From Candidatus Bathyarchaeia archaeon (GTDB lineage: Archaea > Thermoproteota > Bathyarchaeia > Bathyarchaeales > Bathycorpusculaceae): 64,000 nt of DNA. The notes under the pieces are model-generated. The model saw nothing but the letters and a program-made list of their open reading frames with translations. It was not told the origin of the DNA and did no database searches. Made by a program: the position numbers and the translations under genes. Shown one piece after another: positions 3,340 through 34,748 of this stretch. Each line of letters begins with the position of its first letter. Position 1 is the first letter of the stretch. The stretch spans positions 1 through 64,000 of the forward strand of contig JAVZLH010000004.1 of assembly GCA_038883855.1 (NCBI GenBank), in the 5' to 3' direction.

Positions 3340-4372
3340 CAGCCAATTCTGCGCTTAACAGTCCAGCGCCCGCAGCCCCTCTTATGGTGTTGTGCCCTAA
3401 GCAGAGATACTTTATTGTTAGAACAGGATCTTCTCTTATCCTTCCAACAACCACACTCATGCCGTTCCCTTCATTTCTGTCAAAACGGGGCTGAGGTCTA
3501 TCTTTTTCCTCTCTTACTACTATTGGGTTTTTTGGAGCAGAGGGGAGATTAAGCCTCTGCGGTTCACCTTTGAAGTTTCTGAATGCTTCTTTAACTTCCT
3601 CCACTGACGGTTTCTTCTCCAACTCCGCAAAGACGCATTCTAAATGACCGTCCTTGACATCAACTCGACTACAACTTGCACTTAACTGAACTTTTGCCGG
3701 CTGGATTTTGTCGCCGTCCAATTTCCCAAGAATCTTTAGAGTTTCCAGCTCCAGTTTTTCTTCCTCTCCAGAAATGTATGGCACAACATTGTCAATTATG
3801 CTCAGTGAAGGAACCCCTGGAAAACCTGCGCCACTGAGGGCTTGCATTGTTGAGACAATAACCTTTTTTAAGCCAAACTGCATCAGCGGCTTCAAAGTTA
3901 TTGCCAGCTGTATGGTTGAACAGTTGGGGTCGGTTGATAAGAAGCCGCTCCACCCTCTCCTTTTCTTCTGAATTTCAATTAGGGCTAAATGGTCAGGGTT
4001 AACTTCGGGAATTAAAAGGGGCACATCCTCTTCAAGCCTATGAGCACTCGCCTTACTAAACACCGGATATTCTTTGGCAAATTCCTCTTCCACGAGCCCG
4101 GCGACATCTGAGGGTAAGGCGGAGAAAGCGAAATCCACGTTTCCCGCTTCCTTAACAGATTTAAGGTCAGAATGAACTACTTCCATTTCTCCTATTTCGG
4201 CTGGCATGTCCGACTCCAGCACCCAAGTGCAGGCTTCGCGATATTTCTTTCCGGCAGACCTTTCAGAGGCAGCGAGTACCTCAATTTCGAACCATGGGTG
4301 ATTTTGAAGCAGTTGGATGAATCTTTGACCGACAGCCCCTGTTGCTCCAAGGATAGCAACTTTACGCTTCAA
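3320..4372 (-). CDS. asd: Aspartate-semialdehyde dehydrogenase (archaeal type)
   Basis: GATGAVGQRF, PNCST catalytic Cys, QALSGAG, HNTIRGAAG. Confidence 0.97.
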   Translation of the reverse strand: MKRKVAILGATGAVGQRFIQLLQNHPWFEIEVLAASERSAGKKYREACTWVLESDMPAEIGEMEVVHSDLKSVKEAGNVDFAFSALPSDVAGLVEEEFAKEYPVFSKASAHRLEEDVPLLIPEVNPDHLALIEIQKKRRGWSGFLSTDPNCSTIQLAITLKPLMQFGLKKVIVSTMQALSGAGFPGVPSLSIIDNVVPYISGEEEKLELETLKILGKLDGDKIQPAKVQLSASCSRVDVKDGHLECVFAELEKKPSVEEVKEAFRNFKGEPQRLNLPSAPKNPIVVREEKDRPQPRFDRNEGNGMSVVVGRIREDPVLTIKYLCLGHNTIRGAAGAGLLSAELAAKKGYI

Positions 4373-6905: not shown

Positions 6906-8081
6906 ATGCCTAAAAGAGTTGTTGTGAAGTTTGGTGGAGCAGAGCTTTCATCTGGAGAAAAGTTCATAAAAGCGGCAAAAATGGTTAAGGAATCCGGCTA
7001 CGAGGAAATTGCGGTCGTCGTTTCCGCCATGACCGGAACCACCGACAACTTTGTAAACTGCATTAAAGAAATTGGGGAAGTTGACGAGGCCGATTACGCT
7101 GATGTTTTGGCCATGGGCGAAAGAACAAGTGTGAGAATTTTCTGCTCTGCCCTAAAATCTTTAGGTGTCAAATCAACTTACTTTGATCCGCAGCATGAAA
7201 ATTGGCCTATAATAACCAATTCCAACTTCAGAAATGCAAAACCTAACATTGCGGAAACAAAAAAGAGAGTCCAGAAATATGTTGAGCCGCTTCTTGGCGA
7301 TTGTATTCCAGTGATATGTGGTTTTGTCGGGAAGGATAAGTATGAGCGTGTAACTACGCTTGGAAGAGGCGGAAGCGACATCACTGCAACTCTTCTGGGC
7401 AACTGTTTAAGAGCGGATGAGGTCATACTTGTGAAGAATACGGAAGGCGTTCTATCAGCAGACCCGAAGATAGCTCCAAACGCGAAGCCTTTAAAGGAAA
7501 TCTCCATTGAAGAAATGTTTTCCCTTGCCCACGGAGGAGCAAAAATAATCCATCCAGCAGCATTAAAGTATAAGCTTCCAGAACAAAAGTTGAAAGTTGT
7601 CTGTTTTTCTGGAAGCCTATGTTCTAATGGAACTGAAATAACTGGAGTTTTCAGCGCAAACCCCATGGAATTGCGAAGTTACAGCGGATTATCAGCTCTC
7701 ACAATGGTTGGAGAAATAACGCCCAGCAACCTCAGCAAGGTCTTTTCAACCCTTAGCGAAGAGGAAATAGTCGGCATAAGCACTGGCAGAAGCTCAATAA
7801 CATTGTTTGCAAAAGTTGAAAACCCGAAAAAGGCAGTTCAGCAAATTTGCAGTCTCGAATGTTTTAAGGCGGTTAGCCTACGCGAGGGGGTGGGCGCAAT
7901 AGAGGCAATAAACCCAGACTTCATAGACTCGCCAGGGTGGGTCGCGAAGATATCGAATGCCCTTGCAGATAAAGGGATAAACATAGTTGAGGTAACCACT
8001 GGTAAAGCCACCATAAACGTGTTCGTTGACGAAAAGGACTTGGAAGAGGCTTTAACAGCCATAAAAAATGCGGTAAAATGA
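6906..8081 (+). CDS. lysC: Aspartokinase (lysine operon copy) with C-terminal ACT domains
   Basis: VVKFGG, VVSAM, TLGRGGSD, ADPK; ACT-like C-terminus. Confidence 0.93.
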   Translation: MPKRVVVKFGGAELSSGEKFIKAAKMVKESGYEEIAVVVSAMTGTTDNFVNCIKEIGEVDEADYADVLAMGERTSVRIFCSALKSLGVKSTYFDPQHENWPIITNSNFRNAKPNIAETKKRVQKYVEPLLGDCIPVICGFVGKDKYERVTTLGRGGSDITATLLGNCLRADEVILVKNTEGVLSADPKIAPNAKPLKEISIEEMFSLAHGGAKIIHPAALKYKLPEQKLKVVCFSGSLCSNGTEITGVFSANPMELRSYSGLSALTMVGEITPSNLSKVFSTLSEEEIVGISTGRSSITLFAKVENPKKAVQQICSLECFKAVSLREGVGAIEAINPDFIDSPGWVAKISNALADKGINIVEVTTGKATINVFVDEKDLEEALTAIKNAVK

Positions 8082-11407: not shown

Positions 11408-12241
11408 TCAGTTATTTGCCTTTGGGTAAGATCCCAAAATTTTAATGAAAACAGTTTTGTCACGTAATCCTTCTAAAGCTTCTTTATACCTCGGCTCAGT
11501 CCAGTGACCCTCAAAGTCAAGATAGAAATTGTATTCCCATGGCTTACGCTTTGTAGGTCGCGATTCTATTTTAGTGAGATTAATTTCCCGAGACGCAAAC
11601 TCTCCTAAAGCTTTGTAAAGCGCCCCTGGAATATGTTTAACTGAAAAAATTATTGAGGTCTTATCGTTTCCCGAAGGTGGAGCCTCACTTTTGGAAAGGA
11701 CAAAAAAGCGAGTGTAATTGTCCGGGTTATCCGATATGTTTCTTTTCAGAATTTTCATTCCGTAGATTTGGGCTGCTCTTTCACTGGCAATCGCCGCAGC
11801 ATCAGCGACACCCTGTTCTTTGATTAGTTTGACGCTGCCAGCCGTGTCATAAGTGGGAATCGGCTTATAGCCCGACCTTTCCAAGAAGCTTATGCATTGC
11901 CCCAAGGCTTGGGGATGCGAATAAACGACCTTTATGGAATCTAACGTGGCGTTTAAATTTGCTATTAGGCAGTGTTCTATTTTTAGGATTATTTCACCGC
12001 ATACTTTAAGATCGTATTCCATGAACAAATCGTAAACTTGATTTACACTTCCTTCGATGGAGTTTTCCACTGGAACAACGCCATAATCCACTTCGCCAAT
12101 GTCAACGCTTCTGAAAACGTCGGAGAAAAGTTTACATGGCTTAACTTGGACGTTAGAGCCAAAATGTTTGTAAACTGCTAGCTCACTGTATGCGCCTATC
12201 TCGCCTTGAAAGGCAATTTTTAACTGTTTTGTAGTTTTCAC
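11408..12241 (-). CDS. pheA: Prephenate (or arogenate) dehydratase with ACT domain
   Basis: FQGEIGAYS, ENSIEGSV, SHPQALGQC, NYTRF, LTKIESRP. Confidence 0.96.
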   Translation of the reverse strand: MKTTKQLKIAFQGEIGAYSELAVYKHFGSNVQVKPCKLFSDVFRSVDIGEVDYGVVPVENSIEGSVNQVYDLFMEYDLKVCGEIILKIEHCLIANLNATLDSIKVVYSHPQALGQCISFLERSGYKPIPTYDTAGSVKLIKEQGVADAAAIASERAAQIYGMKILKRNISDNPDNYTRFFVLSKSEAPPSGNDKTSIIFSVKHIPGALYKALGEFASREINLTKIESRPTKRKPWEYNFYLDFEGHWTEPRYKEALEGLRDKTVFIKILGSYPKANN

Positions 12242-14827: not shown

Positions 14828-16507
14828 ATGGAGGTCATGACAGGAGCTGAAGCTCTCATAAAAGCCCTTAAGGAGCAGGGCGTTGAGATTATTTTCGGCA
14901 TACCAGGAGGCGCCGCTCTCGACATTTACAATGCTCTATGCGACTCAAACATTAGGCATATTCTAATGAGGCATGAGCAATGTGCAGCGCATGCAGCAGA
15001 TGGATACGCCCGCGCATTAGGGCGCGTTGGAGTTTGCATGGCTACTTCGGGACCTGGTGCAACAAACTTAGTGACTGGCATAGCTGCTGCCTATATGGAT
15101 TCGTCTCCGGTGGTTGCTCTTACAGCCCAAGTTCCAACAACTTACATAGGCAGGGATGCTTTTCAAGAAGCAGACATCACTGGCATAACCAATCCTATAA
15201 CCAAACATAACTTCCAAGTGAGAACCCCTTCAGAAATTCCTTCAGTGGTTAAGAAGGCATTCTTTATTGCCCATTCTGGAAGACCAGGTCCAGTTTTGGT
15301 GGATTTTCCAAAGAACGTCCAAGCAAGTTCAGCCAAGATTGATTTCAGCAACGACATTAAGCTTCCTGGTTACCGTCCAAATTACGAGCCCCATCCATTG
15401 CAAGTTAAGAAGGCTGTTGAGTTGCTTTTGCAAGCTGAGAGACCTATGATAGTTGCTGGAGGTGGGGTTATAGCCTCTAACGCTTCAGCTGAACTAATTT
15501 CGCTTGCGGAGCTTCTTTTGGCACCGGTTGCAACGACGCTTATGGGTAAGGGCTGCATTCCAGAAAATCATCCTTTGGCAACTGGAATGATGGGGATGCA
15601 TGGAACGGTTGCGTCGAACCGCTTAATTCAAGAGGCAGATGTCATCCTTGCGGTTGGCGTGAGGTTTTCAGATAGAACAATTGGCAGGATAGACGAGTTT
15701 GGCAAAGACGTGAGAATCATACATATTGACATAGACTCGGCTGAAATAGGTAAAAATGTCGAGGCCCACGTGCCAATAGTAGCTGATGCCAAGCGCGCAT
15801 TAAACGAAATCCGTAAACTGCTTCAGGAAAACTTCAAAAAGAAAGAACGGTCGGTTTGGATGGCTAAACTTAAGGAACTAAAGGAGCAGCTTGAGGAAAA
15901 AGCAAATTGCACAGAAGGTATAAAGCCGCCCAAGTTGATGGTTGAAATTCGCAAAATGCTTCCCGAAAACGCCATAATAACAACTGAAGTCGGTCAACAT
16001 CAGATGTGGGCGGCGCTTCATTTAAAGATTTACAAGCCTAGAACCTTCATATCATCTGGTGGACTTGGGGCAATGGGTTTTGGGTTTCCAGCCGCTATAG
16101 GCGCCAAAGTAGCTTGTCCAAATGTCCCGGTAGTAGATATTGCTGGGGATGGCAGTTTCATAATGAATGAACAAGAGCTGGCCACTTCAGTTACCGAGCA
16201 AATTCCAGTAGTGGTTGTTATTTTGAACAATTCGATGCTTGGAATGGTTGCACAGTGGCAGAGACTTTTCTATAAAAGGCGATACTTTGCTGTCAATTTG
16301 GGCAAGGTTCCCGACTTTGTAAAGTTGGCAGAGGCTTATGGTGCGCAAGGTTTCCACGTTCAATCAATCGAAGAATTTTCTTCAGCGTTCAAAAACGCGT
16401 TAAAAAGCGATGTCACAACCGTTATAGACGTGCCCATTCATCCAGAAGAAAACGTTTTTCCAATGGTGCCTGCTGGAAAGGCATTAAAAGAAATGATGTG
16501 GGAGTGA
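14828..16507 (+). CDS. ilvB: Acetolactate synthase large subunit
   Basis: MTGAEAL, RHEQCAAHAADG, TSGPGATN, GDGS ThDP motif. Start reassigned to ATG 14828, after SD GGGGGT. Confidence 0.97.
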   Translation: MEVMTGAEALIKALKEQGVEIIFGIPGGAALDIYNALCDSNIRHILMRHEQCAAHAADGYARALGRVGVCMATSGPGATNLVTGIAAAYMDSSPVVALTAQVPTTYIGRDAFQEADITGITNPITKHNFQVRTPSEIPSVVKKAFFIAHSGRPGPVLVDFPKNVQASSAKIDFSNDIKLPGYRPNYEPHPLQVKKAVELLLQAERPMIVAGGGVIASNASAELISLAELLLAPVATTLMGKGCIPENHPLATGMMGMHGTVASNRLIQEADVILAVGVRFSDRTIGRIDEFGKDVRIIHIDIDSAEIGKNVEAHVPIVADAKRALNEIRKLLQENFKKKERSVWMAKLKELKEQLEEKANCTEGIKPPKLMVEIRKMLPENAIITTEVGQHQMWAALHLKIYKPRTFISSGGLGAMGFGFPAAIGAKVACPNVPVVDIAGDGSFIMNEQELATSVTEQIPVVVVILNNSMLGMVAQWQRLFYKRRYFAVNLGKVPDFVKLAEAYGAQGFHVQSIEEFSSAFKNALKSDVTTVIDVPIHPEENVFPMVPAGKALKEMMWE

Positions 16508-24947: not shown

Positions 24948-25814
24948 CTACTCACCCTTTTCCATCACTTCCAAAATGGCGTACATTTTCTCGTACATTG
25001 CAGCCAAATCTAAAGTTTTGGATAAACCCTTGTTTATCTCATTGTAAAAATTCTGGAAGGCTTCCGTGTCGCCGCTCTCTATCAACTTCCTTATCTTTTC
25101 CGCATTTAAAACAAACCTTCTCAGATACTCTGGAGAGTATTTGTTCGCCATATGTAACGAAGCGTGAAGCTCCGAGTCATGCATCATTATCGCTCCTATA
25201 AGAACTTGCTGAAGCGTAAATGTTGTACCGCTCAACTTTTCCAGAGTTTTAAAATCCTCGTCTTTAATTGCTGAGGCGAAGGCCATGTTCACAAAATACT
25301 GAAGAGAAAGTGTTACCGCCATTGCCCTATCATGTTTTTCAGCGTCAACCACAACAATTTCGGCGTCAGGGAAAAATCGTTTAGCAACAGCCAGTTCGCT
25401 TTCAGGGTTTAAAACTGGCACTAAAACAAATTTTTTCTTCGCTTTCTGCATTGGACCAAAAAGAGGATGCAAAGAAAGTGGCTGAACACCAGATTTAGAG
25501 CTTTCCCTTAAAACATCAATTATCCCAGACTTCACAGAAGCAATTTCAGAAACTATAGACCCTTGTTTCAATTTAGGTGTTATTTCCCGCAATACTTCAG
25601 CTGTTTTGCCTATTGGAACAGACACAAGCGTTAGGTCAGCGTCTTCAACAGCTTCCTGATTGTTCCTTGCAACTTTTGCACCGTAATTTTTCGCAAGTGC
25701 TCTCAATTTTTCTTGGTTTATACCAGAAATCGTTAACGGATATCCTTTCTCAGCGAAGTATTGGGTAAACCATTTACCCATCCGTCCTGCCGCGCCTAAA
25801 ATAGCGATCTTCAT
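24948..25814 (-). CDS. tyrA: Prephenate/arogenate dehydrogenase
   Basis: GAAGRMG, SVPI, IASVK, HPLFGP, HDRAMA. Confidence 0.93.
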   Translation of the reverse strand: MKIAILGAAGRMGKWFTQYFAEKGYPLTISGINQEKLRALAKNYGAKVARNNQEAVEDADLTLVSVPIGKTAEVLREITPKLKQGSIVSEIASVKSGIIDVLRESSKSGVQPLSLHPLFGPMQKAKKKFVLVPVLNPESELAVAKRFFPDAEIVVVDAEKHDRAMAVTLSLQYFVNMAFASAIKDEDFKTLEKLSGTTFTLQQVLIGAIMMHDSELHASLHMANKYSPEYLRRFVLNAEKIRKLIESGDTEAFQNFYNEINKGLSKTLDLAAMYEKMYAILEVMEKGE

Positions 25815-27208
25815 TTTAGTAAATCCCCCATCTTTTCAACAGCTTCAAGAAGCACATTTTTAGGTTGACATGCAGTTATCCTAAAGAAATGTTTGTATTC
25901 CTCGCCGAACGCCGTGCCAGGCGTGACGCAAACACTCTTTTCCGTCATAAGTCTCTTAACAAAAGTTTGCGTGTCTATGTTTTCGTTGCGCAGTTTCGGA
26001 AAAACGTAGAAGCCGCCGTCTGGTTTGTGGTAGGAGACAGGTATCTTATCTAAGGCGTCGCAGAGAAAGTCCATTCTCGCCCTGACTGTTTTTGCGTATT
26101 TTTTGGCTTCTTCACGGCAGTCTAAGGCTTTTATTGCTGCGTACTGAACAAACTCTGGGACGCTTGTAAGGCATAAATTCTGAATTTTCACCATCTTTTT
26201 AATGGTTTCCGTATCCGAAATAGCATAGCCCACTCTAAAACCCGTCATGCCGAACGTTTTGGAAAACGAGTTGACAAAGACGAATTTACATCCTGGAAAC
26301 TCCAGTATGCTTTTAAACGGTTTAAAAGCGAAGTTAGAGTAGACTTCATCGCTCATAATGTATATGCCTTTATCGTTGGCTATCTCAACGATCTGTTTTA
26401 AAACATCGCCACTAATAATTTTTCCAGTTGGATTGTTAGGATTATTCAAAATTATCAGTTTTGTTAGCCTATTTACATTTTCAGCTAAAGCATCCAAATC
26501 CGGTTCCCAATTGTTTTCCAGTTCAGCCGGAATCTTCACAGCCTTTGCTTGAACAGCTCTTATACAATCTTTATAGGCTGGCCATGCAGGCTCAAAAACT
26601 ATGGCTTCGTCGCCTGGAGACAATATGGACGCTATGCCGAGATAAACCGCGTATCGTCCACCGGAAGTTACAATTACTTGTTCAGACGAGACATTTGCAT
26701 GATAAAGTTCGTTGTTGACTGAAGCGATTTTCTCTCTAAGTTGAAGAATTCCCGCGCTTTCGGTGTAGTGGGCGTAGCCGCTTTTTAAAGCTTCTGTTAC
26801 AGCTTCTTTTACGCTTTCTGGAGGCCCAAAGTCTGGTTCTCCAACGTCTAAGCGGATTAGCCGTTTACCAGTTCTCTCAAGTTTTTTGGCTTCAGCAAAC
26901 ACCTCGTAAGGCGTGGAGAAACCCGTTTTTCCCTCTGATTTTTGGATTATGTCCTTTTGGATGTTTTTTGACTCTTCAATTAAAAGGTTCAGCAGCCTCA
27001 ATCCAAAATCCAAATCAACACCGTAAGCCTCGCATTTCTTGGAAATAATTTCTTTGAGCTTTCTCTCAGCGTTAACATCTTCCACTGGCAAGCCCTTTTT
27101 TATTTTAAATTCAACCACTTTTTTGGCTAGAGCGAAACGTTTTCCAACTAACTGGAATATCTCAGCCGTAACTTCCTCTATTTCTTTACGTAAATTGTCT
27201 ATATCCAT
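25811..27208 (-). CDS. Chorismate mutase (AroQ)-class I aminotransferase fusion
   Basis: The first ~90 aa are AroQ-like (LRKEI...KR...K...D..E...SKNIQ). They are followed by VGEPDF, NNPNNPTG, SDEVY and SFSKTFGMTGFRVG. Confidence 0.88.
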   Translation of the reverse strand: MDIDNLRKEIEEVTAEIFQLVGKRFALAKKVVEFKIKKGLPVEDVNAERKLKEIISKKCEAYGVDLDFGLRLLNLLIEESKNIQKDIIQKSEGKTGFSTPYEVFAEAKKLERTGKRLIRLDVGEPDFGPPESVKEAVTEALKSGYAHYTESAGILQLREKIASVNNELYHANVSSEQVIVTSGGRYAVYLGIASILSPGDEAIVFEPAWPAYKDCIRAVQAKAVKIPAELENNWEPDLDALAENVNRLTKLIILNNPNNPTGKIISGDVLKQIVEIANDKGIYIMSDEVYSNFAFKPFKSILEFPGCKFVFVNSFSKTFGMTGFRVGYAISDTETIKKMVKIQNLCLTSVPEFVQYAAIKALDCREEAKKYAKTVRARMDFLCDALDKIPVSYHKPDGGFYVFPKLRNENIDTQTFVKRLMTEKSVCVTPGTAFGEEYKHFFRITACQPKNVLLEAVEKMGDLLK

Positions 27209-27295
27209 CTTAATCTTAAAATTTAGACTCCATCGTTCTATTATTCTTTTCCAAAGTTATTAGGGTTGATTTCGGACATGGGGTGGATTTAGAAA

Positions 27296-27317
27296 CCAAA
27301 AAGTATAAATTTTAAAA
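27296..27317 (+). promoter_or_regulatory. BRE-TATA promoter of the aromatic leader operon
   Basis: CCAAAAAG-TATAAAT (alternative TTTTAAAA at 27310-27317); predicts a start around 27331-27342. Confidence 0.65.
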
Positions 27318-27331
27318 AGTTGTTCTAAGTA

Positions 27332-27469
27332 CGGTTATTTCAATGGATAATCCAGTAGCCACAAGAACTACATATTTTGGATATTTTAGTGGCTATTGGG
27401 CATTTGGTTATTAGGAGAAGCCGCGAACACTTTCAGGTTCTTGGTTTCTCCGTTTGGGGGGTTTGTGTG
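27332..27469 (+). promoter_or_regulatory. Putative aromatic attenuator (alternative RNA stems)
   Basis: Stem 27352-27362/27389-27399, plus 5' segment 27332-27341 pairing with 27415-27423. A competing hairpin 27414-27428/27437-27451 has a 3' arm TTCTCC next to the G-rich SD 27456-27461. Confidence 0.75.
27343..27414 (+). CDS. Aromatic-rich leader peptide MDNPVATRTTYFGYFSGYWAFGY
   Basis: ATG...TAG, 23 aa. Eight of the last 13 codons are Tyr (4), Phe (3) or Trp (1). It lies directly upstream of the aspartokinase-aro operon. Confidence 0.88.
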   Translation: MDNPVATRTTYFGYFSGYWAFGY

Positions 27470-28771
27470 GACAAAAATCAAAACGATGTCTTTGATCGTC
27501 CTGTCGTTGTGAAATTCGGTGGGAGTAGTCTTGCAAACGGCGAAAAAATAGCTGATGCTGTCAAAGCCGTTGTGAAAGAAGCGCATAGAGGAGTAAAAAT
27601 TGTTGTTGTCGTTTCAGCCATGGGGAAAACTACAGATCTTCTGCTTGAGGTTGCCAGCGAAATCGTAAACTGCAATGGCGGCGCCGCGTTAAACAGTGAT
27701 GTTGACGATATTTTGGCTATGGGAGAGAGAACCAGCGCGAGAATCTTTTCAGCGGCCCTAAAAGCAAAGGGTGTAAAATGCCGCTATTTTGACCCGGCAG
27801 ATCCGGACTGGCCCATAATCACTAATGATAAAGCTACCAACGCTGACCCTATTCTTTCAGAGTGCGAAGCCCGCATAATGAATTATGTTGCTCCTCTGCT
27901 TAAAGAAGGAACCGTCGCAGTCATCCCAGGTTTCATCGGTAAAACTTTAAATAACAAAATCACGACCATGGGAAGAGGCGGAAGTGACACGACAGCATTA
28001 ATAATAGCACATGCGCTCAAAGCAAAACAAGTTATCCTCGTAACCGACGTGGACGGCATAATGACCGCAGACCCTAAACTTGTCAAGTCTGCAAGAAAAA
28101 TACCGGAGATAGATGTAAACTCATTGATCGGGTTGGCGAGTTCAGGTAAGAAGTTCCTCCAAAGGAAAGCTTTGAGATACAAAGACGAGAATATAGACAT
28201 TAAAATTGTAAACCATAACCATTGCGATTTAAACGCGGAAGGCACAATCGTGAAGGGGTCTTTCACAAGCACCATCGCCAACTTAGATTTTCCAGAACCA
28301 GTAGCCTCAATAACTGTAGTGGGCAGAGCCTTATCCCAGTCGCCTGAACTTTTACATCAGATAATTCAGAAGGTCAAAAAAGCCGATGTTTCCCTTTTGG
28401 GAATGTCGGCCAACTATGATTCACTTATACTCTACTTACCAGAAAACATGTTTGACAAAATACTCGAACCGCTCCATTCAGTTGTCCTTGAAAACCCGGA
28501 AGCTTTAGCCATTGCCGTTAGAAAAAACTTGGCTCTGCTAAAGATTAAAACAGCAGAATTAGAAGAAACCCCGGGAATAATAAGCAGATCTGCCCAAGCC
28601 CTTAGCTCCAAAAACATTAATATTTATGGAATTTTCACAATAGCCTCTGGGATTCACATTTTTGTCGATATGACATCAGCTAAAGAAGCCTTAGCTTTAG
28701 TCAGAAAAAGCCTTGGAATAAACCGCTTAGAAAAAGACATAAAACGAGAGGGAGATATTGAAGATGACTAG
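27467..28771 (+). CDS. Aspartokinase, second copy (aromatic operon); start reassigned to GTG 27467
   Basis: VVVKFGGSS, VVSAMGKTTD, TMGRGGSDTT, DVDGIMTADP, ACT domains. The ORF-track start 27377 falls inside the leader peptide. Confidence 0.92.
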   Translation: MDKNQNDVFDRPVVVKFGGSSLANGEKIADAVKAVVKEAHRGVKIVVVVSAMGKTTDLLLEVASEIVNCNGGAALNSDVDDILAMGERTSARIFSAALKAKGVKCRYFDPADPDWPIITNDKATNADPILSECEARIMNYVAPLLKEGTVAVIPGFIGKTLNNKITTMGRGGSDTTALIIAHALKAKQVILVTDVDGIMTADPKLVKSARKIPEIDVNSLIGLASSGKKFLQRKALRYKDENIDIKIVNHNHCDLNAEGTIVKGSFTSTIANLDFPEPVASITVVGRALSQSPELLHQIIQKVKKADVSLLGMSANYDSLILYLPENMFDKILEPLHSVVLENPEALAIAVRKNLALLKIKTAELEETPGIISRSAQALSSKNINIYGIFTIASGIHIFVDMTSAKEALALVRKSLGINRLEKDIKREGDIEDD

Positions 28772-28835: not shown

Positions 28836-29924
28836 ATGAGGGAGTTTTGGATTAAAATAGAAAAGGACCTTCCAAAGGAGTTAAAAGAGCAGATGATAAA
28901 GGGTACTAGCGATTTTTGCACGGCTTATGTTGTTGACGCAGCCGACGAGGCTTTAGCCAGAAGCCTAGGAGCAAAAACGCTGGTTTCCCAAAAGAGTGGC
29001 GACATAATACTCTTTGAATCTTCTCAGAAAGCTTCTAACGCAAAAATAAACAGAAAAAGGTGTATCCAAGCGAAAATACGTTCAGGAGAAGATGAGAGGA
29101 AAATTGTGAAGTTAGCCGAGGCTGGAATAGAATACATTTTAGCGAAATGCGAAGACTGGAAAATAATTCCGTTAGAAAACCTAATAGCCAGCACGAGAGG
29201 CAAAAGCAAACTTTTAGCGTCTATATCAAGCGCTGATGAAGCTGTCCTTGCACTGGAAGTGCTTGAAGTAGGTGTGGACGGCATTCTGGTGGAGTTGTCG
29301 GATGTTAATGAGATAAAGAAGATTTATGAAACTTGCAGAAAAGTAGACATTAAGTTTGCGGAGGAGGAAGGCATCGAAAAACTGCAGTTGTTTGAAGCGA
29401 AAGTGACTCAGATTAAGCCTTTGCGTTCTGGAGCGCGGACATGTATAGACACATGTGATTTGATGAAGGAAGGCGAAGGAATGCTGGTGGGCTGTCAATC
29501 TTCTGGTCTTTTCCTAATTCAAGCAGAGACAGCGGAAAACCCCTTCGTCGCTCCCAGACCTTTCAGAGTGAATGCTGGTGCAACAGCGCAGTATTTGCTT
29601 GCCAGCGGAGGCAACACAAAATACTTATCGGAGGTTAGGGCTGGCGACGAGGTTCTAATAGTTGATAAGGAAGGGAGAAGCAGAGTTGCTAATGTTTGCA
29701 GAACGAAGATTGAGTGGAGACCATTATTATTGATTGAGGCGGAACATGAAGGCAGAACTTTCAAGGCTATTGTGCAGAATGCTGAAACAATAAGGCTTGC
29801 GACGAAGGAAGGGTCAAAGTCTGTTAAAGATTTAACAAAGGGAGACACTGTGCTAATCCACATACAAGAGGGCGGAAGACACTTCGGCAAACTTGTCAAA
29901 GAAGAAAGAGTGATAGAACGGTGA
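28836..29924 (+). CDS. 3-dehydroquinate synthase II (AroB', DKFP/ADH pathway)
   Basis: DWKIIPLENLIA, LEVGVDG, RTCIDTC, RPFRVNAG, QNAETIRL, GRHFG. Confidence 0.95.
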   Translation: MREFWIKIEKDLPKELKEQMIKGTSDFCTAYVVDAADEALARSLGAKTLVSQKSGDIILFESSQKASNAKINRKRCIQAKIRSGEDERKIVKLAEAGIEYILAKCEDWKIIPLENLIASTRGKSKLLASISSADEAVLALEVLEVGVDGILVELSDVNEIKKIYETCRKVDIKFAEEEGIEKLQLFEAKVTQIKPLRSGARTCIDTCDLMKEGEGMLVGCQSSGLFLIQAETAENPFVAPRPFRVNAGATAQYLLASGGNTKYLSEVRAGDEVLIVDKEGRSRVANVCRTKIEWRPLLLIEAEHEGRTFKAIVQNAETIRLATKEGSKSVKDLTKGDTVLIHIQEGGRHFGKLVKEERVIER

Positions 29925-30610
29925 CCATCAAAGTCTGCGTTCCAATAGCCGCAGAAAAACCATCAGAAATCCCAGCGCTAATAGAAAAGGCGGAAAAAGC
30001 GGGAGCAAACCTCGCAGAAATAAGACTAGACTATCTGGAAGAGTTTAAGGGAGTAGAAAAGGCGGTTGAAGGCGCAAAAATTCCGCTAATAGCGACAAAT
30101 AGGCAATATGAACAGGGCGGGAAGCGTAAACAAGACGAAGGTGAAAGGGTGCAGAGGCTTTTAGAATTGACGGACAAAGGATTCTCCATGGTTGACGTTG
30201 AAATAACAACACCAAACCTAAAGTCTGTGGTAAAAAACTTGAAAAAGAAAGGCGTAGAAACCATAATATCTTTTCACGATTTTAACAAAACCCCAAATCT
30301 AGCAGAATTACGCAAAATTGCCGCTTCACAAATAAAAGCTGGAGCAGACATATGCAAAATAGTCACAAAAGCAAACGACATCAGCGACAACCTCACATGC
30401 CTATCTTTAGTTTCAGAAACTCATCGAAAAACCCGCATAGTGTGCTTTGCCATGGGAAACAATGGAATCCTCTCAAGAATCCTCTCGCCGATTTTCGGCG
30501 CCCACTTCACATACGCCTCGCTTGAAAGCGGAATGGAAACAGCTCCTGGACAGATAAGCATACAAAGGCTTAAAGAAATCTACAAATGTTTAGGTGTCGA
30601 GGAAATTTGA
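29921..30610 (+). CDS. aroD: Type I 3-dehydroquinate dehydratase
   Basis: EIRLD, IATNR, ISFHDF, KIV, FAMG, TAPGQ. Confidence 0.95.
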   Translation: MTIKVCVPIAAEKPSEIPALIEKAEKAGANLAEIRLDYLEEFKGVEKAVEGAKIPLIATNRQYEQGGKRKQDEGERVQRLLELTDKGFSMVDVEITTPNLKSVVKNLKKKGVETIISFHDFNKTPNLAELRKIAASQIKAGADICKIVTKANDISDNLTCLSLVSETHRKTRIVCFAMGNNGILSRILSPIFGAHFTYASLESGMETAPGQISIQRLKEIYKCLGVEEI

Positions 30611-31473
30611 AAATTTCCGGGAAAACCCAACTTTGCGCGTTGATAGGCGACCCAGTTGAGCATTCCCTAAGCCCATACATTCACAACGCTGCATTCAAAC
30701 ATCTAAAACTTGACTTTGTTTACGTGACTTTCAAAGTCTCAAAGGAAAACGTCAAAGAGGCATTGGAAGGCGCAAGAGCCTTAGGAATTAGGGGATTAAA
30801 CGTAACAATGCCACTAAAAACTGCGGTAATCCAGCACCTTGACAAACTTGACCCAAACGCAGAGAAAATAGGCGCAGTAAACACAATCCTCAACAACGAG
30901 GGAAAGTTAACTGGCTACAACACTGATGGATTTGGAGCCCTCGAAGCCCTAAAAGCAAAGAGACAAAACCCAGCGGGAAAGAACATTCTCGTTTTAGGAG
31001 CTGGTGGAGCTGCAAGAGCAGTTGCGTTTGCGCTATGCAAAGATGCAAAAGACATGACGATTCTTAATAGGACGCCAGAAAAGGCAAAAATCCTAGCAGA
31101 GGAACTGAGCAGAATTTTTGAAAAAAAGGTGAAGTTCGGCGGGTTAGGCGAGGAAACTTTAAGGCGAGAGGTGGAAAAGGCGGATATACTTGTGAATGCC
31201 ACAGCAGTTGGAATGGCGCCAAAAATAGATGAGACTCCCGTTGACATGAAACTTTTGCATTCAAACCTAACAGTCTTTGATTTGGTATACAACCCGCCAG
31301 AAACCCGACTTCTGAAAGAAGCTAAGGCCATGGGAGCAAAAACTGTGGATGGAATTTGTATGCTTGTTCACCAAGGGGCTTTATCCTTCCAAATATGGAC
31401 TGGCAGAAAGGCGCCAATTGACGTGATGACACGCGCCTGCAAAAGAGCCTTAAGAACTTTAAGAGGCGAGTAG
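30607..31473 (+). CDS. aroE: Shikimate dehydrogenase
   Basis: GDPVEHSLSP, NVTMPLK, GAVNT, NTDG, GAGGAARA; start TTG 30607. Confidence 0.97.
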   Translation: MKISGKTQLCALIGDPVEHSLSPYIHNAAFKHLKLDFVYVTFKVSKENVKEALEGARALGIRGLNVTMPLKTAVIQHLDKLDPNAEKIGAVNTILNNEGKLTGYNTDGFGALEALKAKRQNPAGKNILVLGAGGAARAVAFALCKDAKDMTILNRTPEKAKILAEELSRIFEKKVKFGGLGEETLRREVEKADILVNATAVGMAPKIDETPVDMKLLHSNLTVFDLVYNPPETRLLKEAKAMGAKTVDGICMLVHQGALSFQIWTGRKAPIDVMTRACKRALRTLRGE

Positions 31474-31476
31474 GCG

Positions 31477-32343
31477 ATGATTGGAAAAGCCATAGCCCAT
31501 GGAGCAGTAACAATAGTTAACGCAATCGCCTGCGGTTTCGGAGCAGCTTTAGGCGTGAAACTATGGACCAAAGCCACAGTAAAATTAACCGACAACCCAG
31601 GAAAGATTGAGGGGAGAATAATTTCTGACCCCAGTGAAAATCCAAGCTTAATGGTGGAGACTGTAAAACAGGTTTTGAACTATTTGAAACTGGAAAAGGT
31701 GTATGGTGCTTATGTGGAGACCGAATCCAACATACCAGTTGCAAGGGGGTTGAAAAGCAGCAGTGTAGCAGCCAACGCCGTAGCATTAGCCACCTTCGCA
31801 GCGTTAAAGAAGGAAGTTGACGATTTGACCGTTGTAAAATTGGGAGTGAAAGCCGCCATAAACGCTAAAGTCACGATAACAGGAGCTTTTGACGATGCAT
31901 GCGCATCTTACTTTGGAAACATAGCCGTGACAGATAACAAAGCCATGAAAATAATGAAGTTCTCTGAGGTTGAAGGCGAATACGAGGTTTTGATTCACGT
32001 TCCACAAGAGAAACGGTACACTGCAAGCATCAACGTTAAAGAAACAAAGGCAATAGCCAGAGAAGTGAAGGCAATTCACAGACTAGTCCTTAATGGAGAT
32101 TACTGGACTGCAATGACCCTTAATGGCTTGGCGTATTCCGCAGTTTTTGGCTACGACCCAAAAATAGCCTTAGAAGCTCTTGTGAATGGGGCGGTGGCTG
32201 CTGGCTTGTCTGGAACCGGACCCGCAGTAGCTGCCATAGTTCCAAAAGAAAGTGCTGGCAAAGTTGCTGAAGCATGGCGGAAACATGGCGGAACGATAAT
32301 TAAAACGGAGATTAACCGTGAAAAGGCGCATGTTTTGAGGTGA
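31477..32343 (+). CDS. aroK: Archaeal (GHMP-type) shikimate kinase
   Basis: GAVTIVNAIA, GLKSSS, TITGAFDDA, LSGTGPA. Confidence 0.95.
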   Translation: MIGKAIAHGAVTIVNAIACGFGAALGVKLWTKATVKLTDNPGKIEGRIISDPSENPSLMVETVKQVLNYLKLEKVYGAYVETESNIPVARGLKSSSVAANAVALATFAALKKEVDDLTVVKLGVKAAINAKVTITGAFDDACASYFGNIAVTDNKAMKIMKFSEVEGEYEVLIHVPQEKRYTASINVKETKAIAREVKAIHRLVLNGDYWTAMTLNGLAYSAVFGYDPKIALEALVNGAVAAGLSGTGPAVAAIVPKESAGKVAEAWRKHGGTIIKTEINREKAHVLR

Positions 32344-32347
32344 AAGT

Positions 32348-33646
32348 TTGGCGACGCTAACTGTGAAGAAAACTGAAAGGCTGGAAGGGACTGTAAGGGC
32401 TCCGCCTTCAAAGGCTTACACTCATAGGGCTGTTATAGCAGCTTCGCTTTCTAAAGGAAAATCGGTGATAAAGTATCCATTGAGGTGCAGCGATACAGAA
32501 GCCACGATTAAGGCGTGTTCAATGTTGGGCGCCAAAATAAAATGGAGCGAGAAAGAAAAAGCGTTAACTGTTGAGGGATTTTCAAAGCCCAAAACCCCAG
32601 ACAACATCATTGACTGTCGAGGTTCAGGCTCAACAATAAGGTTTCTAGCCTCTGTTTGCGCTTTGGCTGAGGGTGCATCTGTTTTAACCGGAAACAAAAG
32701 CTTGAGAAGGAGACCTATGCAACCTTTAATTGACGCTTTAAACCAGCTTGGAACACACTGTTTTAGCGCTAGAAATGATGGGAAACCGCCGATAATTGTT
32801 CTCGGCGGAGGGGTTAAGGGCGGTGAAGCCTCGCTTGTTGGGAATGTAAGTTCACAGTTCATCTCCAGCCTTCTTTTTGCTGCTCCAAAGGCTGAAAAGG
32901 AGACTAGGATAGAGGTTAATACGCCTCTTGAATCCAAATCTTACGTGGAAATGACGTTGAACACGCTTAAAGCACACAAAATAAAAGTTGAATACTCTCA
33001 GAGTTTTGACTGCTTCAGCGTGCCATGCAATCAAGAGTATATGCCTACAAGCCACGTTATAGAGGGCGATTACTCGTCAGCCGCCTTTCTTCTGGCAGCT
33101 GCAAGCATAACAAACTCTAAAGTTATGGTAACAGGCTTGAAAAAAGAGACTCTTCAAGGCGACAAAATAATAGTGGACATCATTAGGAGGATGGGCGTAG
33201 CCGTAAGCTCAGCTGAAGATGGCATAGAAGTTTCTGGAAGCGGCGAAGCGCTTAAGCCAATTAATGTTGATTTGAGGGATTCGCCCGATTTAGTTCCCAT
33301 ATGCGCTGTGTTGGCATGTTTTGCTAAGGGAGAAAGCGTCATTAGTGGAGTTGAAAGGCTGCGTTTTAAAGAGTCTGATAGGCTTGTGGCGTTGGCTTCT
33401 GAATTGGGTAAGATGGGAGCGAAAATTACGGTGAGCGAAAACTCTATGGTAATTGAGGGTGGCGCAAAGCTTCGAGGCGCTCATGTGTTTTCTCACAGAG
33501 ACCATAGGATAGCTATGGCTTGTGTTGTTGCAGCTTTAGGCGCTGAAGGCGAAATAGTTATTCACGGAATAGAATGTATTAAAAAGTCGTATCCAAACTT
33601 TGTTGAAGACTTAAAGAGTTTAGGGGGAAAGTTGTTTGTCTGGTAA
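32348..33646 (+). CDS. aroA: 3-phosphoshikimate 1-carboxyvinyltransferase (EPSP synthase)
   Basis: PPSKAYTHR, RRPM, SSQFISS, GDYSSA, KESDR, DHRIAM. Confidence 0.98.
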   Translation: MATLTVKKTERLEGTVRAPPSKAYTHRAVIAASLSKGKSVIKYPLRCSDTEATIKACSMLGAKIKWSEKEKALTVEGFSKPKTPDNIIDCRGSGSTIRFLASVCALAEGASVLTGNKSLRRRPMQPLIDALNQLGTHCFSARNDGKPPIIVLGGGVKGGEASLVGNVSSQFISSLLFAAPKAEKETRIEVNTPLESKSYVEMTLNTLKAHKIKVEYSQSFDCFSVPCNQEYMPTSHVIEGDYSSAAFLLAAASITNSKVMVTGLKKETLQGDKIIVDIIRRMGVAVSSAEDGIEVSGSGEALKPINVDLRDSPDLVPICAVLACFAKGESVISGVERLRFKESDRLVALASELGKMGAKITVSENSMVIEGGAKLRGAHVFSHRDHRIAMACVVAALGAEGEIVIHGIECIKKSYPNFVEDLKSLGGKLFVW

Positions 33647-34748
33647 CTCTTTCGGAAAAGCCTTTGTAATTACGTGTTTCGGAGAAAGCCATGGAAAATG
33701 CGTGGGAGTAGTAATTGACGGGTGTCCAGCGGGGTTACCGCTTTCCGAAAAAGACATTCAAACAGAACTGGACAAGAGAAGACCAGGCGCATCCAGAATT
33801 AGCACACCCAGAGCAGAGGAAGACAAAGCCGAAATCCTCTCCGGAGTTTTTGGCGGATACACGACTGGTGCACCCATATGTATTGTTGTTTGGAACAAGG
33901 ATGTGGATTCTGAACCCTACGAAAGGTTGAGGAGTAAGCTTAGACCCGGACATGCGGATTACGCTGCCCATCTCAGATACAGCGGGTTTAATGATTATAG
34001 GGGTGGTGGGCGTTTTTCTGGGCGCATAACCGCCGCGTATGTTATGGCTGGAGCGGTAGCCAAAAAACTATTGGAAACTGTTGGTGTGGAGGTTTTGGCG
34101 CACACTGTTCAAATAGGTTCAATAGAAGTTTCAAAGAAGATTTCATACGATGAAATTAGGAAGAACGTTTACGGGAATGATGTTAGATGCGCAGACCCGC
34201 AAGCGGCTGCTCTAATGGAGAAAGAAATTTTGAAAGTTAAAAGCGAAGGGGACAGCCTAGGCGGAGTGGTTGAGTGCATAGCGCTCAATTATCCCGCTGG
34301 TGTGGGCGACCCCATATTTGATTCTTTGGATGCAGACATAGCGAAAATAATGTTTGACATTCCCGGCGTGAAGGGCGTTGAAATCGGTGCTGGTTTTAAC
34401 GCGGCATCTATGAAAGGCTCAGAAAACAACGATGCATTTCGAATAAGAAATGGCAAGATAGTTACGGAAACTAATAATTGTGGTGGGATTTTGGGCGGCT
34501 TGTCTAACGGCATGCCTATAGTGGCTAGAGTAGCGTTTAAGCCAACCTCTTCAATTCTTAAAAGGCAGAGAACTGTGGATATTGAACGTATGGAAGAGGT
34601 TGAGTTGAAGCTTTCTGGAAGGCATGACCCTTGCATTGTGCCCAGAGCGGTTCCAGTTGTTGAATCCTGCATGGCTGTAGTGCTGGTTGACCATGCCATT
34701 AGGCTTGGAAAAATTTCGCCAACGAGCATTTCCTCTCCAAAAGTTTGA
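33636..34748 (+). CDS. aroC: Chorismate synthase
   Basis: FGESHG, RPGHAD, RGGGRFSGR, GGILGG, GRHDPC. Confidence 0.98.
   Translation: MSGNSFGKAFVITCFGESHGKCVGVVIDGCPAGLPLSEKDIQTELDKRRPGASRISTPRAEEDKAEILSGVFGGYTTGAPICIVVWNKDVDSEPYERLRSKLRPGHADYAAHLRYSGFNDYRGGGRFSGRITAAYVMAGAVAKKLLETVGVEVLAHTVQIGSIEVSKKISYDEIRKNVYGNDVRCADPQAAALMEKEILKVKSEGDSLGGVVECIALNYPAGVGDPIFDSLDADIAKIMFDIPGVKGVEIGAGFNAASMKGSENNDAFRIRNGKIVTETNNCGGILGGLSNGMPIVARVAFKPTSSILKRQRTVDIERMEEVELKLSGRHDPCIVPRAVPVVESCMAVVLVDHAIRLGKISPTSISSPKV

Follow-up and report, generated by a model that had tools for sequence, protein, structure and literature searches.

How an archaeon might match the supply of aromatic amino acids to demand is a question raised by the DNA that precedes the aspartokinase–shikimate operon of a Candidatus Bathyarchaeia archaeon (GenBank assembly GCA_038883855.1; 1.11 Mb in 24 contigs, 85% complete). 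Within the window, by which we mean the whole stretch of 64,000 nucleotides analysed (contig JAVZLH010000004.1, positions 1 to 64,000 of the forward strand), a short upstream open reading frame (uORF), rich in tyrosine and phenylalanine codons, stands ahead of the aspartokinase gene; one hairpin, P1, is formed within it and another, P2, begins at its stop codon. An earlier note on the same DNA had taken this region for a multivalent sensor of all three aromatic amino acids, and perhaps of threonine, controlling the common chorismate pathway. We found the leader to be conserved, and the aspartokinase start and both hairpins to be as that note had them, but the tryptophan and threonine inputs, and the competing helices that it named, did not stand in the same way. 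From comparative analysis of sequences, we consider it very probable that the region encodes an amino-acid-sensing leader peptide of some kind, taking transcriptional and translational outputs together. The narrower proposal, a ribosome-sensed Tyr/Phe attenuator that acts on the aspartokinase/shikimate operon during transcription, we hold tentatively, judging the case for it to be nearly, though not quite, evenly balanced. The features concerned are collected in Table 1.

Table 1. Features of the leader region, of the operon and of related genes, in window positions.
Feature	Positions	Strand	Basis or remark
B recognition element (BRE)/TATA-like promoter element, AAACCAAAAAGTATAAAT (TATAAAT 27304-27310)	27293..27310	+	Read in sequence; group alignments
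Leader uORF, 23 codons and TAG (27412-27414), MDNPVATRTTYFGYFSGYWAFGY	27343..27414	+	ATG 27343
Hairpin P1	27352..27399	+	Core 27352-27362 (codons 4-7) with 27389-27399 (Ser-Gly-Tyr-Trp codons); minimum-energy fold
Hairpin P2	27414..27451	+	First base is the G of the TAG stop; 4 nt separate its end from the G-run
T-run TTT directly after P2	27453..27455	+	
G-run GGGGGG, presumed Shine–Dalgarno sequence of the aspartokinase	27456..27461	+	-11 to -6 from GTG
Aspartokinase, AA_kinase and ACT domains	27467..28771	+	Operon gene 1; Pfam, start from homologues
Remaining operon: 3-dehydroquinate (DHQ) synthase II (aroB'), type I dehydroquinase (aroD), shikimate dehydrogenase (aroE), GHMP-type shikimate kinase, 5-enolpyruvylshikimate-3-phosphate synthase (aroA), chorismate synthase (aroC)	28836..34748	+	Pfam
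Chorismate mutase-aminotransferase fusion	25811-27208	-	Pfam; divergent from the leader
Prephenate dehydrogenase	24948-25814	-	Divergent from the leader
Second aspartokinase paralogue, 37% identical to the leader-controlled one	6912-8075	+	
Aspartate-semialdehyde dehydrogenase-like gene	3983-4363	-	
Prephenate dehydratase	11684-12217	-	

Rereading of the sequence confirmed the composition that had been ascribed to the uORF, namely four Tyr, three Phe and one Trp, or eight aromatic residues, among the last 13 codons, with the aromatic codons lying at 27373-27411. As a measure of what chance provides, 26 of the 11,893 short ATG-started open reading frames (ORFs) in the window's genome reach at least seven aromatic residues in a 12-residue window, and 28 other intergenic short ORFs have at least six aromatic residues among their last 14. 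Of these 28, eight have a gene on the same strand no more than 250 nt downstream, and in no case is that gene one of an aromatic pathway. Aromatic composition alone is therefore not rare enough, and the case for a leader rests on its position and its conservation.

Conservation was assessed at orthologous aspartokinase loci, a locus being counted as positive if an ATG-started uORF with at least five aromatic residues among its last 14 lies just upstream of the gene. Such a uORF is present at 57 of the 68 assessable loci of the class Bathyarchaeia, made up of all 15 orthologous loci found among 41 related genomes (the window's own included), all four named Bathyarchaeota loci, 29 of the 39 assessable loci in a sample spread over the class's families and nine of ten assessable metagenome loci. 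It is also present at 11 of 18 loci from other classes of the phylum, but at none of 14 paralogous or distant aspartokinase loci was there such an upstream ORF on the same strand (threshold at least 6/14). The check put forward in the earlier note, conservation of an aromatic-rich uORF before this aspartokinase in related genomes, thus came out in its favour. As to the exceptions, L146 in the class sample lies at a contig end, L130 has a shorter peptide with four aromatic residues and neither of the two loci of family f17 has such a uORF with an ATG start; among the metagenome loci, L173 has no upstream sequence and L175 no uORF. The nearest named relatives of the window's aspartokinase are 'Candidatus Bathyarchaeota/Bathyarchaeia' metagenome-assembled genomes. 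They come from a scan of genome contigs with an aspartokinase alignment, whose patterns were too general and returned mostly bacterial aspartokinases, and which was used only for the names of the four nearest relatives. Throughout, the aspartokinase starts at other loci were picked by us, the groups used for statistics were set by eye from sequence similarity, and related sequences are not independent of one another.

At leader-bearing loci, the gene that follows the aspartokinase is DHQ synthase II in 35 cases, and among 17 others the next gene encodes an aspartate-semialdehyde dehydrogenase in 13, a DeoC/LacD aldolase in two and something else in L015. The first three kinds of gene all belong to the aspartate-semialdehyde route, so that the leader heads that entry into aromatic biosynthesis. 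Nine loci of the class without an aromatic uORF (L133-L138, L147, L148 and L150) bear a different, conserved uORF. At L133-L138 this is a short ORF starting MGD.LFGDGVY, some 150-260 nt upstream of an aspartokinase-asd pair (nucleotides CTTTTCGGTGATGGCGTTTAC), and L147 has a related version (nucleotides GGYIFGDYIYGE); its conservation in sequence hints at a leader of another kind, perhaps an arrest peptide or an RNA motif. The leader of L190, from family f66 of another class, is minimal, having eight codons, MAYFFFSY, 74 nt ahead of the conserved aspartokinase motif.

A mechanically produced ORF list opens the aspartokinase at TTG 27377, within the uORF region. Homologous aspartokinases begin 8-14 residues ahead of the motif VVKFGGSS, and in four of them (L011, L012, L013 and L015) the ATG is preceded, at a distance of one or two codons, by an in-frame stop. 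In close relatives, the uORF stop is separated from the start codon by 50, 51, 52, 53 or 55 nt, and, since this spacing varies by amounts that are not multiples of three, the stretch between the two must be non-coding. GTG 27467 is nearly invariant and is preceded by the G-run. Taken together, the homologue starts and the non-triplet spacing identify GTG 27467 as the start of the aspartokinase, in agreement with the earlier note; the same observations and the in-frame stops argue against TTG 27377. The annotated start is therefore off by 90 nt, the miscall arising because the leader is open in the aspartokinase frame, and it was rightly pointed out that the ORF track conceals the leader by extending the aspartokinase into it.

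Which amino acids might be sensed can be judged from the composition of 46 leaders. Their last 14 residues comprise 27.3% Tyr, 26.9% Phe and 2.2% Trp, against proteome backgrounds of 3.2%, 4.4% and 1.1%, respectively, and Trp is found in only 13 of the 46. Almost all members of the window's group (14 of 16) keep the TGG codon, but it lies within the 3' arm of P1, so that structure could explain its conservation. The idea of a sensor for all three aromatic amino acids is consequently supported for Tyr and Phe, but not for Trp. Both synonymous codons are used for each of the main residues (TTT/TTC, 95/93; TAT/TAC, 133/49), and the last codon is aromatic in 17 of the 46 leaders and the penultimate one in 28. 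In the two groups that could be aligned, 37 of 54 codon changes in aromatic columns stay aromatic, compared with about 2/9 expected from single-base neighbours, these tallies being counts over related sequences rather than independent events. The N-terminal columns, by comparison, vary freely, with up to 13 different codons. Judged from the sequences, conserved composition with free sequence is what a starvation-sensing leader would show, and an arrest peptide would not.

The N-terminal parts of the 46 leaders are enriched in Thr (14.7%, against a background of 5.2%), and Ser and Asn are raised too. Ahead of the aromatic run, positions 27361-27372 of the window encode Thr-Arg-Thr-Thr, and L002, L165 and L166 have four or five consecutive Thr codons. 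These longer runs are confined to the window's three closest relatives and are not found in more distant members of the group. With the runs so restricted, and with Ser and Asn raised alongside Thr, the suggestion that threonine is sensed as well was not sustained. Thr/Ser-rich stretches do recur in other lineages, for example in L010, L122, L123 and L128. The residues sensed would thus be Tyr and Phe, with Trp at most a minor input and Thr not established.

Both hairpins that had been drawn for this region, the one inside the uORF (P1) and the one that follows it (P2), were recovered in our analysis. The uORF region 27333-27413 folds with -21.9 kcal/mol (z -3.12, equalled by 2 of 200 shuffles), and the P1 fold reaches outward to about 27342-27409, where the start-codon region pairs with the last codons. 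P2 has -20.7 kcal/mol (z -5.06, equalled by none of 200 shuffles), and the fold of the whole leader has a z of -3.80. In an alignment of the window's group (A2, 16 sequences), P1 and P2 together are 95.8% paired, compared with 31-60% when the partners are slid, and six pairs have changed on both sides; none of 500 shuffles was as good. The nine-pair core helix of P1 is 98.6% paired with two pairs changed on both sides, a further helix of two pairs is 87.5% paired, and the lower helix of P2 is 95% paired with four pairs changed on both sides. The compensatory replacement of CC/GG by AA/TT in P1 of L174 is an example. In the sister group (A3, 15 sequences), P1 and P2 are 95.6% paired, and P1 is built differently, the 5' untranslated region (UTR), including a GAGG before the ATG, pairing with Ser-Phe-Gly/Asp-Tyr codons.

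This arrangement extends over the wider family. In 45 leaders, the start region of the uORF pairs with the aromatic tract at a mean z of -1.36 (18 of the 45 below -1.64; group-level Wilcoxon p 0.006). Past the stop codon, 44 of 46 leaders have a hairpin of -11 kcal/mol or stronger, the weak cases being L007 and L130, and its sequences show no relationship from one lineage to another. Between the uORF stop and the aspartokinase start, for starts that we picked ourselves, there are 48-67 nt in 43 of the 46, and the distance from the end of P2 to the start codon has a median of 18 nt. A permissive Rfam scan of 27150-27550 found no family, its only two matches (E 9.2 and 9.6) lying far below the gathering scores. 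In L178-L182, from families f58 and f62 of other classes, the uORF ends in a conserved Gly-Pro, and a small hairpin, GGTCCC-TAA-GGGGACC, has the stop codon in its loop; the 3' strand of this hairpin serves also as the 5' arm of the larger post-stop hairpin. These leaders thus have a clear local competitor of P2, which the window-type leader is without.

Of five alternative pairings tested, the one between the 5' region and the 5' arm of P2 is alone in having family-wide support, which is weak. In 45 leaders it has a mean z of -0.80, with 7 of 45 at p ≤ 0.05 and a group-level p of about 0.02, and the cognate pairing is stronger than the non-cognate one in 29 of the 45; in the sister group 85.7% of it is paired, compared with at most 54% after sliding. 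Between the aromatic tract and the 5' arm of P2 there is no pairing signal across the family (mean z -0.15). In the window's leader this pairing has -10.5 kcal/mol (z -1.84), in L002 a z of -2.54 and in L113 one of -2.27.

The mechanism that we tentatively favour would be decided during transcription, with P2 as the off element; in the window's lineage a U-run comes after it. With charged Tyr-tRNA and Phe-tRNA in ample supply, the ribosome would reach the stop codon and leave, P1 would re-form behind it and hold the 5' segment, and P2 would then form, so that transcription would end before the aspartokinase. When these tRNAs are scarce, the ribosome would wait on the aromatic codons and P1 could not form. 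The freed 5' segment would then pair with the 5' arm of P2 ahead of the synthesis of its 3' arm, and that part of the aromatic tract which the ribosome leaves uncovered may do likewise in the window's genus. Alternatively, a ribosome on the last codon would cover the 5' arm of P2 directly. Either way P2 would fail and the operon would be read. The timing is suggested by the energies: because P2 is far more stable than its competitors, an alternative fold could matter only before the 3' arm of P2 is made, and, with the alternative fold limited to that time, the decision would fall during transcription. The T-run after P2 fits this scheme in the window's group, where at least three T follow in 16 of 17 sequences and at least four in 11 of 17, with up to seven.

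Several observations weigh against attenuation of this kind. The alternatives to P2 reach only -9 to -10.5 kcal/mol, so that the switch would have to be kinetic. A starved ribosome should stop at the first hungry codon, which is too far upstream to cover P2. The 5'-end pairing proposed for the window in the earlier note (27332-27341 with 27415-27423) is complementary, with -8.8 kcal/mol, but it does not stand out from shuffles (z -1.06, p 0.14), and in the window's group 63.9% of its cells are paired, no more than in shuffled and slid controls; nor is the 5' region's pairing with P2 backed by covariation in the sister group, where 8 of 15 sequences break one of its pairs. The window itself has only three T after P2, and the sister group has no T-run there, a conserved T-run lying in the loop of P2 instead. 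By our own estimate from the genome's per-position rates, a TTTT would be expected in about half of all 55-nt intervals, and in 20 kb of the window hairpin-plus-T sites were not enriched (24, compared with 22.2 expected). Archaeal termination is reported to need a U-rich tract and not a hairpin (PMC7515710). Finally, the Shine–Dalgarno sequence of the aspartokinase always lies near P2, which fits a translational output too. As regards the sister group (L008-L015, L031, L033 and L111-L117), an A-run followed by four to six T is the best-conserved part of the P2 loop, 17-26 nt past the uORF stop; it could be a pause or termination site, or a plain extension of the stem by A-U pairs. A scan for promoters and terminators of bacterial type gave counts equal to those of shuffles, and is uninformative for an archaeon.

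The same sensor with a translational output is the most serious rival, though we regard it as distinctly less probable than an even chance would make it. Here one stable mRNA would carry both uORF and aspartokinase, and P2 would limit initiation at the latter: it ends 2-10 nt before the Shine–Dalgarno sequence and could act sterically, through pairing of its opened 3' arm with that sequence or through a basal extension in which the last codons pair with it. How much of the time P2 is open would then depend on how long ribosomes stay on the last Tyr/Phe codons. The fixed spacing of uORF, hairpin and start codon described above speaks for this, as do the lack of a universal T-run after P2, the lack of enrichment of bacterial-type terminators in the window's genome and the extension of P2 into the Shine–Dalgarno sequence in several minimum-energy folds. 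In the sister group, moreover, a mini-hairpin between the 3' arm of P2 and the Shine–Dalgarno sequence is 84% paired, compared with at most 66% after sliding, and there is a bacterial precedent in the mycobacterial poly-Cys short ORFs (10.1101/834739). Over the whole set, however, pairing of the P2 3' arm with the Shine–Dalgarno sequence is not above what composition gives (mean z -0.25, group-level p 0.82). The particular fold of TTCTCC onto GGGGGG that the earlier note had offered for the window is possible, at -4.9 kcal/mol, but has a z of +0.67 and is 75% paired in the window's group, as in slid controls, and is not supported; nor is pairing of the aromatic tract with the Shine–Dalgarno sequence above shuffles (mean z +0.07). 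When folding was repeated with a ribosome masking the leader, the mean unpaired value of the Shine–Dalgarno sequence was 0.40, 0.42 and 0.45 with the mask at the first, middle and last aromatic codon, and 0.44 at the stop, compared with 0.39 for the free leader. There was no consistent change in accessibility, the value at the stop being lower than in mid-stall in 8 of 46 leaders and higher in 14. The simplest translational versions also have the wrong sign, because an opened P2 would free its pyrimidine arm to mask the Shine–Dalgarno sequence.

The other explanations dispense with starvation sensing, and we think all of them improbable. That the uORF and hairpins are conserved for some reason other than amino-acid sensing, as an aromatic micropeptide, a constitutive uORF or stabilizing 5' hairpins, is quite improbable; the 28 other aromatic-rich short ORFs of the genome make a chance origin possible, but the genes downstream of those checked have nothing to do with aromatic synthesis, the tie is to one operon across the phylum and not to paralogous loci, and a free N-terminus, selection on aromatic codons and a stop codon abutting a hairpin are the signature of a leader peptide. 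Arrest peptides such as TnaC require a particular peptide sequence together with a free ligand. An arrest peptide of this sort, sensing free aromatic amino acids or another ligand in the ribosome tunnel, would resemble the present case in having a ribosome at the end of a short uORF and an adjoining element that decides downstream transcription. Local motifs do recur, F-S-G-Y-W in the window's group and S-F-G/D-Y in the sister group, and some families carry the sequence-conserved MGD.LFGDGVY uORF. These motifs coincide, however, with the 3' arm of P1, so RNA pairing explains their conservation; across lineages composition alone is kept, neither sequence nor length, in contrast to TnaC, and stalling at high aromatic levels suits a catabolic operon and not a biosynthetic one. 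We therefore rate this explanation as very improbable. The most improbable, in our view, is that P1 and P2 form a protein- or ligand-binding RNA element, such as a repressor operator or a riboswitch, with the reading frame incidental. Their strong conservation would agree with such an element, as would the divergent chorismate mutase-aminotransferase fusion, with which the intergenic region may hold several controls, but the hairpin sequences differ completely between lineages where the aromatic frame persists, codon changes keep the aromatic residues and no Rfam family matches.

The BRE/TATA-like element is nearly invariant in the alignments of the window's group and has a fixed spacing upstream of the uORF, which thus sits between this conserved box and the first gene of the operon, behind a transcript start that is a prediction. 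From the TATA box, and with the usual archaeal TATA-to-start spacing, transcription is predicted to start near 27333 ± 3, which would leave a 5' UTR of about 10 nt without a Shine–Dalgarno sequence. Shine–Dalgarno usage was taken from the enrichment of words upstream of the genome's genes, where GGTG, GAGG and AGGTG are enriched at -14 to -9; the 3' end of the 16S rRNA, which carries the anti-Shine–Dalgarno sequence, was not found in the assembly with two short motifs.

On its other side, the intergenic region of 258 nt (27209-27466) is common to the leader operon and to the divergent genes for the chorismate mutase-aminotransferase fusion and prephenate dehydrogenase, and it may control both the common pathway and the Tyr/Phe branch. 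DHQ synthase II and a GHMP shikimate kinase are marks of the archaeal pathway, which starts from aspartate semialdehyde (PMC4162585). Elsewhere in the window's genome, no aromatic- or Trp-rich leader was found upstream of trpE, of the DeoC-type aldolase or of the two aspartate-semialdehyde dehydrogenase-like genes, and a crude scan of the genome for short ORFs with runs of a single amino acid gave candidates only before unrelated genes. The sole short ORF upstream of trpE, at about 15789-15830 on the minus strand of contig C8 (MHMGNSVWLIKAF), lies downstream of a TATA-like box and has one Trp codon; it is not convincing.

It remains to set the leader beside known systems. The trpL, pheL and hisL leaders of Escherichia coli are the classical leader-peptide transcription attenuators. 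Like them (for pheL, PMC3082878), the present case has a short uORF in which codons for the end product of the pathway are clustered, placed in the predicted 5' leader of a biosynthetic operon. It shares with them also one hairpin that separates the uORF from the first gene, another that takes in the sensing codons, and a peptide conserved in composition only. It differs in its archaeal host, with a TATA/BRE promoter and an RNA polymerase whose termination is reported not to need hairpins (PMC7515710). It differs also in that the distal hairpin begins right at the stop codon, so that an antiterminator segment could not be fitted in downstream, and that the sensing segment has its partner on the upstream side, where the uORF starts, as if the logic of trp had been kept with its segments permuted. 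The U-run is short or absent, and the antiterminator is weakly supported.

In function, the closest counterpart is aroR, a leader of Corynebacterium glutamicum that precedes aroF; it has a Phe-Tyr-Phe triplet, and only Phe limitation is reported to have an effect on it (PMC11802643). Both are mixed Phe/Tyr leaders at the entry to the common aromatic pathway, but the archaeal leader has 5-10 aromatic codons, aroR is bacterial and the sequences are unrelated. In the mycobacterial poly-Cys leaderless short ORFs, a stalled ribosome blocks a structure that would sequester the downstream ribosome-binding site (10.1101/834739). These share with the present leader a place at or near the 5' end and little or no Shine–Dalgarno sequence, and with its proposed action the sensing of an amino acid by ribosome stalling and control of the next gene of the operon, whereas in the window's family the equivalents of Shine–Dalgarno sequestration are not above chance.

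Leader-peptide attenuation is a textbook mechanism of bacteria. Our full-text literature searches, outside the reach of which most subscription journals lie, found no archaeal leader-peptide attenuator, and the words 'attenuation', 'attenuator' and 'leader peptide' do not occur in a review of archaeal transcription–translation coupling (PMC8116511). We think it probable that this is the first ribosome-mediated amino-acid attenuator in Archaea: an ancient and widespread Tyr/Phe leader of Bathyarchaeia and other classes, in which the segments are rearranged with respect to those of bacteria. If so, archaea would regulate genes by coupling translation either to transcription or to initiation downstream, and would have rebuilt the leader device several times around one invariant idea. 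As archaeal RNA polymerase terminates unlike the bacterial enzyme, the conserved switch of uORF and hairpins offers a concrete natural substrate on which to ask whether a ribosome can steer archaeal transcription, or whether sensing is wired to translation. The leader also links a dedicated aspartokinase, often accompanied by an aldolase and an aspartate-semialdehyde dehydrogenase, with the route by which these uncultured archaea would make aromatic amino acids from aspartate semialdehyde.

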